Of a DNA stretch of 64,000 nucleotides, positions 21,665 to 29,100 are shown one piece after another (position 1 is the stretch's first letter; the number at the start of each line of letters is the position of its first letter). Source of the DNA: Patellaria atrata CBS 101060. Taxonomy: Eukaryota. The stretch is from positions 124,001 through 188,000 of the forward strand of contig MU006099.1 in assembly GCA_010093705.1 (NCBI GenBank), in the 5' to 3' direction. A model generated the notes under the pieces. It searched no databases, had not been told where the DNA came from, and was given only the letters and a program-made list of their open reading frames with translations. A program made the position numbers and the translations under genes.

Positions 21665-21693
21665 TCCTCCTCCTCCTCCTCCTCCTCCTCCTC
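21665..21693. repeat. (TCC)n microsatellite
   Basis: Perfect trinucleotide run. Confidence 0.95.
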
Positions 21694-22077
21694 TTCTCCA
21701 TCTACTCCTGCTTCGAGCCTTCAACTCTTCAACCCTTCATCCCTTCGATTGAGTCCACTACCCACCCCTATAACTCTACGCTTCAGTAGAGCCGAAAGAG
21801 AAGGAAGATGTATTAGGTTCTCAGGAACACAACCAAGAGGCGGAAATGGCACAACACAATCGGGAGTTCGCACCGAGGAACTCGTGCTGCAATGAAGGAA
21901 CAGGACACCCTAACAGTCTTAGCTTTCTGACCATCTAGGGTACCAAACATCAACGCCCGACTTAAGCACGTCTGTAAACCGCTCAATCGATCCTCCAAGA
22001 GAGTGAATGCTCCAGACAACGTCTCCAGTGCTTTCAATCTTAACTAACAGTAAGTCAACACCCTGTTACCCCTGAAA

Positions 22078-22147: not shown

Positions 22148-23435
22148 CAAATAGAGCTATTCGGATTAAACACTCGCCTTTCTTAATCACATTCGCTATG
22201 ACTAGTCAGAACATAGCTAACCGGTATAACCAGTGTCTCCTTCCGACAAGAATCTCCTCGTCTGACTTCTCTGCGTTATCGTTCCGGAGTGGCCACTGAC
22301 AACTAGAGCTTTAGCACTCCTGATTCTGCTTCCGACTTCACCCATTATCTGAAACCGAACGGAGTAGGTCCTTTTTCTCTAAGAACTTCTTTCATTTCAC
22401 ATGATGACAAAACAAAACACAACCGGTAGAAGGTCGATTGGATTAAGGGTCAAATGTCCCTGGGGACATGGCCTGTTACTATTACCGCTGCCAATCACTG
22501 TTGTTGGCTAGGACGAAGGGTCAAAATGGATCCTTAACTTCTCTAAAAGCAGGTCCGTCGACTGTCCAGACTGAGTTCCGTACGCGGTTCCATGGCTTGT
22601 TATTTTAAATTTATCTAATCAAGGATTCACCATTCCAATCGTATCTCTCTTCGTTGTCTATGTTCTTGAGCTAAATGCCAAATAGGTTTGCAATATCATT
22701 GCAGTCGGCTGGAGTGTTCCATCACCAACTCTCACGGTGTAAGTACCTTTCTTATGCGGCACCTTGCACTTTGAAATGATGATATCCACCCGCGATGGAA
22801 GTTCCTAATGAAAGTTGATACGGCATAGTAGTCCTGCTGCCGGCCACACTATCCCATGTGTCACTGGCAAGGATGAGGCGCCAAAAGGGCTTCGCGAGAA
22901 ACCCATTCTGTCAGCTTTTTAAGGTGGTTATTTCTGCGTGGGTTTGAATTGCTACATATCAGCTTTTGACCATCTGATCGACACCACCATATGCCCTTTC
23001 TTCGGTTCGATGTTTAACTTCCGGACTAACTGCTGGTTTAGGTTCACGATTTTATGGATGGCTAGGCTCTTCCTAGAGTAAGTTCTTTTCTCCTGTCGTC
23101 CCCATTCAAATTCTTCATGATGATCAGCCAAAACACCATCGAATGGACGTTCTTTATGAAACTTCCCTAAGGCGTACTGTTCCCATTGTCGATTAGTCTT
23201 TACTTGAGTCTTTGGCAGAAATGAGTTATGCTGAAGTGGTATTCCCCTTCCGTGGGTATGATTTGTGGTTCTGGATTCCTTTAGGGGGTTTAACATTTCT
23301 GATGGAGACTCCCTATTTTCGCTCTTTCGCCTCGTTGTTTGATTCCTTGTGTGACTGCTCAAGTAGGTCCGCGGTATCGTCCACGATCAAATTACTATCG
23401 AGTAAGTCATTTTCCTTAAACCCAAAATCAAGATT

Positions 23436-23529
23436 CCGAATGATGATCAAAAACCAAAAAAAAAAAAAACCAAAATCAAGAAAGTCTGAGAACGATGTTG
23501 GATGATTTCATCTCAATGGATCTGACCTG
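23436..23529 (+). ncRNA. Candidate intronic C/D snoRNA (A-rich, possibly decayed)
   Basis: C ATGATGA 23440; D' CTGA 23486; C'-like TGGATGA ~23499; D CTGA 23522; branch ACTAAC 23576. Confidence 0.55.
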
Positions 23530-23663
23530 CACTATTCCCCTAGCTTTCTTCCACGTCGGCTATTGAAGAGTTTCGACTAACTGCTACAGCAGGTTCGCGA
23601 TATCGTCCGTCTTCTAAATTTCCATAGAGCAAGTTCTTTCTCCAATCACCATACCCACTAGAT

Positions 23664-23731
23664 CTCATATGATGAAAGGCATGATTTTCTGAGAACCGTG
23701 TTCCATGATATCAGTTTCAATTCTGACCAAG
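23664..23731 (+). ncRNA. Candidate intronic C/D snoRNA, subfamily A copy 1
   Basis: C ATGATGA 23669; D' CTGA 23689; D CTGA 23723; branch GCTGAC 23775. Confidence 0.6.
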
Positions 23732-23861
23732 GCCGCACAACTATTTATCTCTGCGTCGCTACTTAAACTTCTTTGCTGACTACTAGAGCAGGTCCATGCT
23801 ATATCGTCCGTGTTCCAGATTTCCATAGAGTAAGTTCTTTCTCCAAGCTTTATACCCGGAT

Positions 23862-23930
23862 CTCGTATGACGAAATTCAAGATTTTTTGAGATCCGTGTT
23901 CCATGATATCATTTTTCAATTCTGACCGAG
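23862..23930 (+). ncRNA. Candidate intronic C/D snoRNA, subfamily A copy 2
   Basis: C ATGACGA 23867; D CTGA 23922; terminal stem CTCG/CGAG; paralog of 23664-23731. Confidence 0.6.
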
Positions 23931-24065
23931 GCCGCACAACTGTTTATCTCTGCGTCGCTACTCAAACTTTCTTTGCTGATGACTAGAGCAGGATCATGCC
24001 ATATCGTCCGCGGTAATTTGTCTAAGGTAGGTTTTCCGTACGAACCCCTTTCCAGTCGTTCATCG

Positions 24066-24138
24066 CTGTCATGATGAGAGTGTTTACATATGAGAAATTA
24101 TGTGGAAAACAATCGTTCTTTTGGAACTATCTGAACAG
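24066..24138 (+). ncRNA. Candidate intronic C/D snoRNA
   Basis: C ATGATGA 24071; D CTGA 24131; perfect terminal stem CTGT/ACAG; branch TCTAAC 24182. Confidence 0.7.
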
Positions 24139-24333
24139 GCAACCTGATGTTGTATCTTTTCTGGCAATTGGAGTTCCCACCTCTAACCACACAATGGAAA
24201 GTAGGCCTTCAATATCAGCCGGGATCCTTTCGGAAAGGTACGCATTGTTTCCCAATCTTTGTACGAATGACAAGTCCGAGTCGATGACCGTCTGCAAGGT
24301 ACCTGTTTAAACCATGTCTTTCCGATAAATGAC

Positions 24334-24419
24334 GGCTGCCAATAATGATTAAATTATTCTTCTCCTTTTGACCAACGTTGAGAAATCGAATACGTCTGAA
24401 TGGCACCTCTAATGTAGCC
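24334..24419 (+). ncRNA. Degenerate C/D snoRNA copy, subfamily B (probably inactive)
   Basis: C ATAATGA, D' TTGA and D CTAA are each a single transition from consensus; stem GGCTGC/GTAGCC; alignable to the next two units. Confidence 0.5.
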
Positions 24420-24556
24420 AGTATATCTCAAGACTATTTCTAAAGCTTGAAGTTTCCTCTGCTAACTGATAGAGAATAGGACTTACAATATCATCCTCGG
24501 CACCATTCCCCTCAATAAGGTACGTGATTTAACCGTCTCTTTCTGTGGAATTTGAC

Positions 24557-24640
24557 TGCCAATGATGATCAACCTATTCAACTTCTTTTTTTGACAGGCG
24601 CTGATAAAAAAGAATATGTCTGAATGGCATATCTGAGGCA
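24557..24640 (+). ncRNA. Candidate intronic C/D snoRNA, subfamily B
   Basis: C ATGATGA 24562; D' CTGA 24601; D CTGA 24633; stem TGCC/GGCA; branch GCTGAC 24687. Confidence 0.72.
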
Positions 24641-24783
24641 ACCAACATATCTCTCAAGACTGTTTCTAAAGGTTGAAGTGTCCTCTGCTGACTTGTGAAG
24701 AATTAGGACTTGCAATATCATCCTCCGCAACGTTCCCGTCTGTAAAGTACGTGATTCAACCGTCTCTTTTCGTGAATTTTGAC

Positions 24784-24869
24784 CGCCGATGATGATCAAC
24801 CTATTCAACTTCTCCTTTTTTTGACAGGCGCTGAGAAAAAGAATTTGTTCGAATGACAGATCTGAGGCG
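24784..24869 (+). ncRNA. Candidate intronic C/D snoRNA, subfamily B
   Basis: C ATGATGA 24789; D' CTGA 24831; D CTGA 24862; stem CGCC/GGCG; branch GCTAAC 24917. Confidence 0.72.
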
Positions 24870-25020
24870 ACTAATCTCTTTCTCAACATTGTTTCTGAAA
24901 GCTTGAAGTGTTCTCCGCTAACTGATATGGTGAGAACAGAACTTGCAATACTATCCGCGGTCATCTTCTCTTGCAAGGTACGTACTCAAACATCTCTTTT
25001 TGTGAACTGTGATGGGAGTT

Positions 25021-25099
25021 CTGATGATCCACATAAATTCTTGGACTTCTTATTGAGACTTGTGTGTCGTTGAAAAAAAACGTTCTGGACCAGATCTGA
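25021..25099 (+). ncRNA. Candidate intronic C/D snoRNA (diverged)
   Basis: C CTGATGA 25021, 43 nt after the donor; D in CAGATCTGAGG as in subfamily B; no clear stem. Confidence 0.45.
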
Positions 25100-25268
25100 G
25101 GTAGACAGCTAGCATAATATAATTGCTAATAGATTTGAACCGATCACTACTTATCGATTTTTCCAGGATTAACGCGAGCGGCCTGGATGCGAACAGTCGA
25201 GCTATTTCACCGTTTAAACGGTCGTAATGGTAGGTTTCCCCTTTTGCATGCCCATCTCCTGAAACTGT

Positions 25269-25355
25269 TTGCTGTTATGATGGTCCAAATCTGTTCTATG
25301 CTGATCTGAATCTTCAATGACGAAAACACGGATCCAAAATTGTCTGAACTAGCGA
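25269..25355 (+). ncRNA. Candidate intronic C/D snoRNA
   Basis: C-like ATGATGG 25277; D' CTGA 25301; C' ATGACGA 25317; D CTGA 25344; stem TTGCTGT/ACTAGCGA with one bulge; branch GCTAAC 25397. Confidence 0.6.
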
Positions 25356-25734
25356 GCTAGTGTCGTGTCATTTTTATTGTTCTTTAAGCGATCACTGCTA
25401 ACCCCTTTGTCCAGGGATTACTCGAAATGATCGAACGCCAATATTTCCAGTCGGGATATACATCGCATCGCAAAACGTTGTAACGGTACGTATGATTACT
25501 GTCCGTCAATAGAAAATGCCTCTCTCTGTAATGAACTAGACATTCGACTTTTCGAATTTATCGTGAGAATACCAAATCAATTTCTGACTGATCCATTTGA
25601 TTTCGTTGTAAACATGAAGTCAAGCAGTGCTAACAATGCGACCAGGTACACATTTCGTAGATAGTCGGAGCGGTGGACGCAGGCGAACACAGTGGTATGT
25701 ATCTTCTTGCTTTGTTTATCCTAAAGCTTTTCCA

Positions 25735-25824
25735 GTGGCCATGAAGTTCAATTGAACTATTATAAGGTCTTTTGACACCTTGAATGAAAAAAAAGCCCTA
25801 GTTCGTAAAATTTATGACGGCCAC
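25735..25824 (+). ncRNA. Candidate intronic C/D snoRNA (variant boxes)
   Basis: Perfect 6-bp stem GTGGCC/GGCCAC enclosing C-like ATGAAGT 25741 and D-like ATGA 25814; branch GCTAAT 25868. Confidence 0.5.
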
Positions 25825-25969
25825 GGGTCTCTTCACATCGCACCGATAAAACTTTTGACGGAGCTGTGCTAATTACTCTCCGCAGGTGAAAACTTGATAA
25901 ACCAGAGGGAGAGACGCATCGCGCACAATGGTACGTATTTCCCTTCTTCCTAATACCATTGTCGTAATC

Positions 25970-26049
25970 ATAATGAGCAAAGATCCTTCCCCACTTGACC
26001 TCTTCATGAGAACAGCACATTGGAATTCCCAATTCGAGAGTGAGACTGA
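25970..26049 (+). ncRNA. Degenerate intronic C/D-like unit
   Basis: ATAATGA 39 nt after donor 25931; CTGA 26046; branch GCTGAT 26095. Confidence 0.4.
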
Positions 26050-26214
26050 GCAAGGTTACTGTTACTGGTCCAGACTGAAATGAATGCTTATTGTGCTGAT
26101 TATCTGGCCGAGTGAAAAGTAGAAAAGCCGTGTAAATGTGGGCCAGACTTGGGATCCAAACATATATCATGGGAAGTATTTCTGTTTTTTTGTTGTCAGA
26201 AACCCCCAGTGCGT

Positions 26215-26298
26215 ATGGTGAATGCCTAAATATATTGGCTTCTCGAGATTCTTGAGACAATCCGTGAGCACAACAAAGGCTGTACGAGCCATTTCTGA
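26215..26298 (+). ncRNA. Degenerate intronic C/D-like unit
   Basis: ATGGTGA 39 nt after a weak donor at 26176; CTGA 26295; branch GCTAAT 26347. Confidence 0.4.
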
Positions 26299-26465
26299 CA
26301 AAATACGTGTGATATCGCAATGAACATGAGCAGCAGACGGAGCAGAGCTAATCGTTCTTCCAGGTGAAAACTCGATAAACTTAATGCTCGGTATGGAGAG
26401 TTGGACGCAAAACCATGTTGCGTAACGGTACGCGTCTTTTTCTATTTGTTCAAGAGAGACCTCGG

Positions 26466-26555
26466 CAATTATGATGCTATTGAGAAATCGACGGTATTTT
26501 GATTCCAATGGATCCTGAGGAAACGCCATATTCGATTCAATGACTGATAGAATTG
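26466..26555 (+). ncRNA. Candidate intronic C/D snoRNA
   Basis: C-like ATGATGC 26471; D CTGA 26544; stem CAATT/AATTG; branch GCTAAC 26597. Confidence 0.5.
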
Positions 26556-26789
26556 ACCCAAGACCCTGGTAGTGTTGAAGGTTCGGAATGAGCAATGCTA
26601 ACCGGTAGGTGACTAGGGAGTCTACCTCAAAGTGAGCTGCACATACACGAGAAATGGCCCATCGAGACTTTATTTTGCACAGGCACGAAGATGTTCTTGG
26701 TTGCATTCATATCCAAAGGTATGTGAATCTCAATTACATGCTCAGCTAGCTTCCCCTGCGGTAGGTGAGCAGAACCGGCACTAAGAAAA

Positions 26790-29100
26790 CGTTAAGATTT
26801 CAGAAGCTGCTCGTCGGAATGGTGTTCTGGATCCGTCACATCAACCGCATCGATTGAGTGAAGTAGGGTTGCAATAGTACCGACGGGTGACTTGATCTCC
26901 TTTCTTCCAAGTCCGCCGCCAAGTACCACATCATCTCCATTATCCAATACATACACGTCTGAAGATCCACAGATCAATCTCCATGATGACCCCACAGATG
27001 CTCGTAGAGATATCGTGAGCATGCTCCCGATAGTGGCTATTATGTTGACTGTTTTTGCACGCTCATTTAGGCTCCTCATTCTCGACCCTGCGAGCCAACC
27101 CTGATGGAAAGAGTTTTCATGTGTCCAACAAGCCGCAGGGTTCTTAGGCATCTCAGTGTAAGACCGTCCAGTTGAGCAGAAGAGTGCAAAGGTCGGTAAT
27201 GAGTAACAGTCGCCCGGGGAAAGCATATAAGATGAATTACGAGCTTGCAAGAAGATGGTAAGTCAGCTCCTCGTTGTGGCATCAAGTACTCTTCCAGGTA
27301 CAAAGGTCGAATCAACAAATGTTTCTGTGTTCTCCACGAAGAAATAAGTTGAAAGACCATACATATCCGTGGGGTTTGTGGATGTGCCATACAGTGGGTT
27401 GTGGATGTTAGTAATCCGGTAAGCAGAACTGACGGGAAGACTGTACCAACCGGTTCTTCCAATCCCGGATGATAAGTTCACGTCGGCTTCACATATTACT
27501 GTTCCCAACGACAAGTCCCTTTAGAGTCTTGCTCTTTAGAGACGGCGGGTGGAGTTTAGTGTTTCTGATGGGTCCCTAATAACAGCAGTTGGATCTTGGC
27601 AATTTGGTATATAGAACTGCACGGAAAATTGCACTCAAGGACGGTCTTCCAATCCGGATGATGAGTTCATGCCAGCTTCACTAAGATTACTTCCAACGAC
27701 AAGATCCTCCGGGGTTTGTTTCCGAAGCTAGCTAGTGAAGCTAGTGTTTCTGACGGAACCAACCGACTATTCCCGGGCGGACATTTTTTTAAGATGGTTT
27801 GTTCCTTGATTTTTGAGCAAGGAATGTAGAGATTCCTATCGAATGAAGAGCTTGATACTTACTGGAATATTGATGATATGAGGTCTTTTGAAAGTGGACT
27901 AGTGCCCACCGTCGTGAGGAGTATCATATTCTCCGGGAAATGATGGACTTCTTCCCGAACGATTGAACTGACCTGAGAAATTATCACTTTCAAGAACGGC
28001 TTCCTTACATGGAATGTCCTTCATAGATCGTCAGTGACGGTTGCTCTGACCGGAAATACTGGAAGTGGAATGGTTCCTTTGCTCATTAAGAAGTTCGTTA
28101 CTGTTAGTGTACAAATGCCGGAGTGGAAGTTTAGTCTCTTGAAAATGACAGGGAAGGAAGAATCGGTCTGATGGAAGGGAACGACGGACCAAACTGACTA
28201 AAGGAAGAAAGAGTAAAGAATTGACCAAAGGTTCAGGACCGAGGAGCTTGAGACGCCATAAAGAGCATGAAATATCGCCACAGAATGTACAACTGACTGG
28301 ATATAGTTTGACAATGCAGACAAAGTAAAAGATCAGATGTAAGTACAACTGTCGTGGTATGAAAACTAATGACTTGTGACTAGAGTGACAGAATGGAAGC
28401 AAATCGATATGAACTGAAGACATTGTGACTGGCAAGCGCACGCACTTACGGATGACTAGGATTAAGGAGGACAGATTGAGGAAGCCGAAGTTGCGGATTA
28501 AAGGATAATAGGTCTCGCTGCAGGACGCTATAAGTTCTGGGACAGAATAACTAGTGATCCAATAGAAAGTACAAGAGCAGAAAAAGGTACTCGAGAAGCG
28601 CAATGAACTTAAGAGAAGCACAAGATGGAGGACAAAGATATGGGAGAAATTTCTCTAGTTCCACAGAGACGGTTTGAAAATAAGGAAGGAAATGATGAAA
28701 GGACGAATGACGCCATAAAAAAGACTGGCAAATGATTACTTGGGAGGATACTGCCCTTAGGTCCGACTGCCAGCTCGTAGGTAGGACTATTTCCGTTCCA
28801 ATGTCCAAAGCCGAACCTTCACTGGCTGTTAATATTTATGCAACTTCGATATACGATGATAGCAAACCCTCATAGCAACTCCCCAGTGTTTTCTTCTAGA
28901 TAACACCACCGCGCACTCTGATTCCTTCAGTACTAATATGTCTTTTGTTATGTCCGTTAGGAGGCGCGGACTTGAGGATGGTTGCCTGAATATATGGACG
29001 CCCTTTCTAATACTGTCGTCGCGATTGGAATGGATGAACCTAAGGCGCGTTGTGGGAGCACACATTACGTCCGATCATGGTGCGTTTCGTCGGCGGAGTC
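26790..29100 (+). pseudogene. Decayed long low-complexity/charged coding sequence with internal direct repeat
   Basis: Protein-like frame (SFLPSPPPSTTSSPLS..., later E/K/D-rich) interrupted by scattered stops and frameshifts; ~120-bp imperfect repeat at ~27451-27573 and ~27641-27760. Boundaries approximate. Confidence 0.4.

Follow-up and report, generated by a model that had tools for sequence, protein, structure and literature searches.

In our reading, positions 24557 to 24869 hold the second and third of a tandem series of three box C/D snoRNA genes (termed U1, U2 and U3), which are encoded in introns and belong to a duplicated module of a host gene; the middle unit, U2, would be a chimera, U2 and U3 probably orphans, and U1 probably inactive. 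We give this reading as a whole a probability of roughly 55%. The window, i.e., the entire 64-kb stretch of DNA that was analysed, is fungal and encodes Med13-, Vps27-, NOL10/ENP2- and mitochondrial-carrier-like proteins. Its NOL10-like ORF is 100% identical to a protein whose source is given as a Dothideomycete, followed by a hit at 70%, so that the nearest sequenced relatives stand at about 70% identity in protein sequence.

Both focal units lie on the + strand. U2 spans 24557..24640, with TGCC at 24557-24560, an A, box C at 24562-24568, D' at 24601-24604, D at 24633-24636 and GGCA at 24637-24640, and U3 spans 24784..24869, with CGCC at 24784-24787, a G, box C at 24789-24795, D' at 24831-24834, D at 24862-24865 and GGCG at 24866-24869. 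Both were also recovered by a basic pattern scan that asked for boxes C and D with a flanking stem. Direct reading bore out the whole descriptive part of the original prediction, including that U2 and U3 have identical C, D' and D boxes (ATGATGA/CTGA/CTGA), that the segment before D' (TTTTTTTGACAGGCGCTGA) is the same in both across 19 nt, and that the segment before D has diverged, with U2 and U3 mismatching at 5 positions in 15 nt. In alignment A1, which comprises the three intron-plus-exon modules, 6 of the 25 columns from 101 to 125 (box D with the nucleotides ahead of it, and the 3' stem) differed between U2 and U3, the sixth being stem column 125. The third paralog, U1 (24334..24419, + strand), was also confirmed to carry the stem GGCTGC/GTAGCC, at 24334-24339 and 24414-24419. 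It has ATAATGA at the C position (24342-24348), TTGA as D' (24378-24381) and CTAA at the D position (24409-24412), and an ATGATTA is present at 24345-24351, three nt past the positional C box. With regard to the features that define the class, U2 and U3 possess a box C of the form RUGAUGA and a box D CUGA, whereas U1 departs from both at its positional boxes (ATAATGA, CTAA); a short terminal helix, 4 bp long in U2 and U3 and 6 bp long in U1, was found in one register in the three units.

U2 contains two D-like boxes, GTCTGA-A-TGGCA at 24618-24629, common to U1, and ATCTGA-GGCA at 24631-24640, common to U3. The second D-like CTGA and its TGGCA (24620..24629, + strand; 24396-24405 in U1) could pair with TGCCA at 24557-24561; U3 has lost this box and reads TCGA...TGACA there. 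Separately, the D' module of U3 (TGACAGGCGCTGAG, 24820-24834) resembles its own D module (TGACAGATCTGAG, 24853-24866), a likeness that stems from two U3-specific changes ahead of box D and that may reflect internal conversion or chance.

The three units sit in a predicted transcript with the signature of a snoRNA host gene. Along the + strand from about 22.6 to 26.6 kb, GTACGT/GTAAGT 5' splice sites alternate about 14 times with CTAAC/CTGAC...AG, and the CTGAC/CTAAC branch-point/3' splice signal is present in every intron. Most of these introns contain a C/D-like RNA, and a single + strand ORF of at least 80 aa was found, which is 94 aa long and overlaps an intron. From the splice signals, ORFs and intronic RNAs, we place a non-coding multi-intron host gene at approximately 22580..26610 (+ strand). 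The splice-signal map predicts a short exon between the U2 and U3 introns at 24707..24746 (+ strand) and sister exons at about 24473/24480-24519 and 24940-24977 (+ strand). At the level of signals, the arrangement of UHG-like intronic snoRNAs, with one snoRNA per intron, splice signals and no long ORF, was thus observed. According to Liu et al. (2009, PMC2780460), the UHG-like clusters of N. crassa likewise combine one snoRNA per intron with short exons and little coding potential, place the snoRNA about 40 nt from the 5' splice site, and carry in neighbouring introns guides to conserved rRNA sites. Unlike in the clusters described there, one module was here tandemly multiplied, giving three units and a relic with a chimeric middle copy; moreover, splicing and expression in N. 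crassa were demonstrated by RT-PCR, whereas the present host gene is predicted from sequence signals.

A repeat search delimited three copies spaced 224-230 bp apart. The relic of a fourth unit, restricted to the 3' part, lies at 24258..24284 (+ strand; 27 nt, 81% identity to 24844-24870 within the repeat family), and a covariance model of the three units detected no further copy in the 64-kb window. U2 proved to be a mosaic in alignment A1. In columns 1-100, covering the 5' intron flank, box C and the D' region, 21 informative sites link it to U3 and 4 to U1, whereas in columns 101-235 the split is 22 for U1 and 12 for U3 (Fisher p 0.0002); U2 and U3 are identical at 86/95 positions in the former block vs 90/129 in the latter. 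Judged by this site pattern, U2 is a chimera with a U3-like 5' intron flank, C box and D' region and a U1-like remainder. Unequal crossing-over of a U1-type with a U3-type unit, or else gene conversion, would be expected to yield such a chimera in an array that would have grown by copying of an intron-plus-exon module of about 227 bp from the non-coding host gene. The DNA contigs covering the locus were identical to the window, without variants or joints; two more short ones, of 258 and 160 nt, were identical as well.

A second tandem pair of intron-plus-exon modules was noticed at 23597-24010, with a period of about 199 bp and pieces that are 85-95% identical. Each module holds a short C/D-like RNA, with ATGATGA/CTGA in the first and ATGACGA and TTGA in the second, and the intron apparently opens with GCAAGT in the first copy and with GTAAGT in the second.

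In a C/D kink-turn, two G's form the tandem G.A pairs; U1 has A at both of them, in column 46 (24344, box C) and column 120 (24411, box D), each being a TpG>TpA change. Since both kink-turn G's are lost, U1 is probably inactive, despite its 6-bp closing helix and its better guide. Altogether, 9 positions show A in U1 where U2 and U3 share G, and 6 of these are in TpG context; the count of TpA dinucleotides in U1 is 19, compared to 11 in U2 and 7 in U3. By composition, these base changes look like mild RIP, and RIP on duplicated snoRNA genes is treated in the Neurospora paper (PMC2780460).

The 5' splice site of the U1 intron at 24299 is poor (GTACCT). As a better site, GTACGC, occurs at 24238, upstream of the relic unit, the intron may start at 24238 and contain the relic together with U1. 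A longer snoRNA reaching from the C-like box of U1 to the CTGA at 24466 was considered and rejected, as this CTGA is a branch-point/3' splice signal and no terminal helix accompanies it.

The terminal helix and boxes C and D of a C/D snoRNP form the kink-turn that is bound by Snu13, and the helix also shields the RNA while the spliced intron is trimmed. In U2 and U3, the helix and boxes would form this Snu13-bound kink-turn and protect the RNA. The stem change from TGCC/GGCA in U2 to CGCC/GGCG in U3, on which the original prediction was built, was verified as T24557 vs C24784 and A24640 vs G24869 (columns 39 and 125). Columns 36-42 pair with columns 122-128 in the same register in all three copies, and the register is specific, with 76% of cells paired vs 5-38% when the 3' partner was slid by 1-3 columns. 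Column pair 39-125 is U-A in U1 and U2 and C-G in U3; pair 40-124 is G.U in U1 and G-C in U2 and U3; pair 41-123 is C-G throughout; and pair 42-122 is unpaired in U1 and C-G in the other two. Further out, pair 36-128 is G-C in U1 and U2 and G.U in U3, while pairs 37-127 and 38-126 are G-C and C-G, respectively, in U1 and unpaired in both U2 and U3. Given that U1 and U2 share T and A in columns 39 and 125, the simplest placement of both changes is on the U3 branch, where U-A would have become C-G, probably via U.G, a path that would preserve pairing throughout. RIP was rejected as the source of this swap: in U3, T was replaced by C and A by G, which is not the RIP type, and transitions were unbiased in direction, with 11 vs 9 among the U3-specific and 5 vs 6 among the U2-specific changes.

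The swap in itself is real but ordinary. At the substitution rate of the snoRNA (10 substitutions per 83 aligned positions), the chance of a double hit on any of the four stem pairs is 0.052, and 0.032 if both hits are transitions; at the rate of the whole unit, these values become 0.17 and 0.079. The pair-count score on the three sequences was equalled or exceeded by 183 of 500 shuffles, a test that has no power at three rows. The terminal stem closes the minimum-energy folds of both U2 and U3, which are not unusually stable (z of -1.1 and -0.3, respectively). As orthologs were not found, the covariation rests on one pair in three paralogs. The proposal that RNA structure is under selection received partial support: the double change does preserve the pair, as selection on the terminal helix predicts, but because it is a single event with a chance of about 0.03-0.08 it is suggestive only. 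On the alignment, the change may be called compatible with purifying selection on the kink-turn helix; taken alone, it is little proof of selection.

The likeliest competing explanation, which we nonetheless consider unlikely, holds that U2 and U3, or all three copies, are functionless, drifting duplicates, the stem change being a chance double transition and the D' stretch being shared by recent descent. The chance just given applies to one doubly hit pair that was picked by a reader scanning many features, and drift would also account for U2 and U3 guides that lack an rRNA target (see below) and for a 5' intron flank, outside the RNA, that is as conserved between U2 and U3 as the snoRNA itself (32/37 vs 73/83, p 0.77). 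Decay of array copies is seen in U1, and the pair at 23597-24010 likewise has one copy with degraded boxes. Against drift, all 15 box nucleotides and a fully paired stem were retained in both U2 and U3, yet 33 of 104 positions differ in the 3' intron and exon, and the changes in the stem are limited to compensating ones. Fifteen unchanged box nucleotides are, by our own arithmetic, not unlikely at the rate of the 5' flank (~0.1).

For the guide of U1, a candidate target was found. Its stretch TTTGACCAAC-G-TTGA (24367-24381) is a 10/10 Watson-Crick complement to 18S GTTGGTCAAA, and the element is perfectly complementary to fungal 18S GUUGGUCAAA. For complementarity, fungal rDNA loci were fetched from metagenomes, and the 10/10 match was present in 32 of 106 fungal loci; among 10 reference loci, 7 had it, at positions 2-11 from the box. 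In the genome collection, eukaryotic rDNA contigs (loci L001-L055) turned up as contaminants in many assemblies and MAGs of prokaryotes, with a complete LSU or SSU in L034, L035, L038 and L015. The target GTTGGTCAAA is located immediately 5' of the ITS1-F primer site, near the 3' end of 18S. The methylated position is set by the fifth nucleotide from box D or D', and this rule predicts methylation of the G in GUU[G]GUC, at a distance of about 75 nt from the 3' end of 18S. Under a lenient duplex score, the match was equalled by 229 of 1000 shuffles; a stricter estimate, based on ten contiguous Watson-Crick pairs, three offsets and ~6.2 kb, gave about 0.02 by our own arithmetic. The site is variable (89 variants in 100 loci), and, as read here from the loci of other fungi, may differ from the host's own 18S. 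Human SNORD20/U20, which we take to be the guide for 18S Um1804, would act in the 3' region of 18S on that same strand, a few nt downstream of the predicted G; it differs in the nucleotide addressed, and no sequence likeness to it was found. The U1-type site is absent from the N. crassa targets predicted in PMC2780460.

The U1 match also bears on how the boxes are parsed. In a different parse, D' would be the TTGA inside TTTTTTTGAC, CTGA(T/G)AA would start box C', and GACAGGCG would be the spacer or loop of an internal hairpin instead of an antisense element. In its favour, cmscan placed the D' of SNORD18 and SNORD26 (on U2) and of snoZ196 (on U1) on the UUGA just before GAC, the U-run and the A-run that enclose CAG-GCG-CUG are paired with each other in the folds of U2 and U3, and box C is separated from the CTGA by a long interval (32-35 nt). 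However, these Rfam matches are well under threshold, the hairpin is of low complexity and the folds are no better than shuffles; moreover, TTGA as D' puts the fifth upstream nucleotide in the U-run, with no target found, and the 10/10 match of U1 to 18S correctly precedes the TTGA/CTGA at A1 columns 86-89, not the other TTGA. We regard this parse as distinctly unlikely.

With the boxes parsed as in A1, the D' antisense stretch of U2, TTTGACAGGCG, lies at 24590..24600 (+ strand), and its homologs are at 24820-24830 in U3 and 24367-24377 in U1 (TTTGACCAACG). The original prediction had seen here a D' guide maintained by selection after duplication, a view that our results do not support, given the equally conserved flank, the mosaic structure of U2 and an rRNA match no better than shuffles. 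A further run of about 20 identical nt follows box C directly in U2 and U3; with this run and a flank as conserved as the RNA, the 19-nt identical run is not exceptional for a recently diverged segment. In our reading, the stretch was kept because that half of U2 and U3 split recently, not through guide selection, and on the alignment it represents the U1 element in diverged form.

The search for a target of this stretch, which had been suggested together with the guide, likewise turned out negative for rRNA. Scoring box-anchored duplexes against a composite fungal 18S+5.8S+LSU reference with 1000 shuffles, the best duplex reached 8.5 vs a shuffle mean of 9.56, and 905 of the 1000 shuffles equalled or exceeded it. 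Nor did the stretches ahead of box D in U2 and U3 perform better against fungal rRNA, with scores below the shuffle means; the best-scoring rRNA places for the U2 and U3 guides varied between loci, and no target for the guide was found in non-fungal rDNA loci. On the U1-type 18S site, U2 and U3 would form C-G, G.U and G.U, then an A x G mismatch at position 5, followed by six pairs. In view of this mismatch at the very nucleotide for methylation and of the two G.U pairs, U2 and U3 are, on predicted pairing, probably orphan snoRNAs as regards rRNA methylation.

A working guide under selection, as first proposed, would address a target such as a snRNA, a tRNA, an mRNA or an unusual 18S of this fungus. 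Its 19 identical nt include a consensus D' box, and PMC2780460 lists C/D snoRNAs of N. crassa predicted to act on snRNAs and tRNAs as well as on rRNA. One fungal locus, L085, has GTCTGACAAA at the 18S site, which would pair with the U2/U3 guide at position 5, and if the fungus's own 18S were GCCUGUCAAA-like at this site, U2 and U3 would be true guides. Nevertheless, none of the 100 loci reaching the site combines U at the critical position with a match in the rest of the site, the rRNA score falls under the shuffle mean, identical runs are not in excess and the stretch is not preserved in U1. We regard a selected guide as distinctly unlikely.

Between box C and the guide, a second antisense element was identified at 24578..24587 in U2 (TCAACTTCTT, + strand), with counterparts at 24805-24814 in U3 (TCAACTTCTC) and, as CTTCTC, at 24359-24364 in U1. 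It complements 18S GAGAAG(TTGG), just 5' of and overlapping the guide target. The U3 element pairs with GAGAAGTTGG with one G.U (15/106 loci) and with GAGAAGTTGA with no G.U (3/106), while that of U2 pairs with GAGAAGTTGA with one G.U (3/106). Extra base-pairing that adjoins or overlaps the guide duplex was described for yeast and human C/D snoRNAs by van Nues et al. (2011, PMC3116282). As there, the second element is short and faces rRNA just upstream of, or partly overlapping, the guide target; unlike there, it is here predicted from sequence, and in U2 and U3 the 10-nt extra element pairs better than the guide. It is conceivable, and to our minds very improbable, that U2 and U3 are stable snoRNPs unable to methylate, which would still attach to 18S, at the 3' strand of its helix-44 region, by the 10-nt element and the remaining 6 bp of guide; they would then be a folding chaperone, or competitors tuning methylation by the U1-type guide, and a methylation guide would have been made a non-catalytic binder through duplication of an intron-exon module.

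A stretch at the 3' end of U1, TGGCACCTCTA followed by ATGT (24401..24415, + strand), is complementary to LSU TAGAGGTGCCA, with 11/11 pairs in locus L093 and 10/10 in L072. The match score was equalled by 47 of 1000 shuffles, and a duplex of 10-11 bp was possible in 2 of 7 full-length fungal LSU loci, with strict greps finding the site in 3 fungal loci. In PMC2780460, the site (AGAGGUGCCA/TAGAGGTGCCA) is the target of the D' guide of N. crassa CD8 (snR48/U60 family), which also ends in ATGT. Within the family of snR48, N. crassa CD8 and human U60 (names as in PMC2780460), the U1 element resembles the CD8 D' guide in its complementarity to the same LSU site and in its odd ATGT box. It differs in its location at the 3' end of U1, where it overlies the decayed D box, instead of in the 5' half; the remaining U1 sequence is unlike CD8, and the element is absent in U2 and U3. 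No snR48 match to the units was obtained with Rfam at E up to 10. By its pairing, the stretch may be an antisense element that has changed position, as reported for fungi in PMC5824354, or a coincidence.

Comparison with known families gave no assignment. All 4227 curated Rfam families yielded 0 matches at the gathering threshold in the window, and the best score for the units was that of U3 to snoZ159/U59, 25.1 bits against a gathering value of 39. Relative to snoZ159/U59, snoR44_J54, SNORD18 and SNORD26, the C/D layout, boxes and closing stem align; however, the scores are 18-25 bits vs gathering values of 39-48, and the unit guides miss the targets of those families. Two resemblances to N. 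crassa snoRNAs, one between the 5' parts of the units and CD20 and one between the second element and the D guide of CD4 (CAACUUCU plus CUGA), were set aside as too short for homology. A metagenome pattern scan for orthologs (ATGATGA, a gap of 18-34, TTTTTGACAGGCGCTGA) returned 0 stretches, and 0 matches to the ITS1-F primer were found in the viral contigs scanned. The family formed by these units is probably lineage-specific within the known C/D class, while 'The fungal snoRNAome' (PMC5824354), which lists families and predicted targets, may already include it or its 18S target.

Taken as such, the locus provides a multi-snoRNA host gene that had gone unannotated and a probably lineage-specific C/D family, both from a class of fungi that has received little study, and offers a small, clean case of snoRNA family growth in which modules are copied in tandem, chimeras form by recombination and boxes or guides are lost. 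Two predictions follow for the Dothideomycetes: a G carrying a 2'-O-methyl group some 75 nt short of the 3' end of 18S, and an snR48-type antisense element moved to a new position. The general understanding of C/D snoRNAs is unchanged by these findings; their additions are modest, consisting of the chimeric middle copy, the reciprocal decay of boxes in U1 and of guides in U2 and U3, and the predicted 18S target.

Several neighbouring intronic RNAs of the host gene also showed complementarity to rRNA. One pairs over 13 bp with LSU AAAGACTAATCGA, present in 11 of the 19 long loci, which is the D' site of N. crassa CD39. The intronic C/D RNA at 23432-23540 has a D' stretch, AATCAAGAAAG followed by TCTGA, with 11/11 complementarity to 18S CTTTCTTGATT (9/19 long loci); this RNA contains a run of 14 A's, and its 18S site is absent from the N. 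crassa list. Others match 18S TTAAAAAGCT over 10 bp (6/19 long loci) and 18S AGATACCGTCG over 11 bp with one G.U (3/19), the latter in the region of N. crassa CD18. A further intronic C/D RNA, at 25272-25350, gave a sub-threshold match to snR61/Z1/Z11 (25.6 bits, gathering 45), and its D' stretch is similar, not equal, to the guide of N. crassa CD38. Two tandem RNA-like units of ~180 nt, at 27395-27575 and 27576-27775, share GGATGAT(A/G)AG...TTTCTGA with a mean column identity of 79% (alignment A3); the second weakly matches the ACEA_U3 family (21.4 bits, gathering 55), and the pair may be U3-like snoRNA genes in the sense of that family. Finally, a (CCT)n microsatellite of about nine units was observed at 21668-21694, upstream of the host gene.
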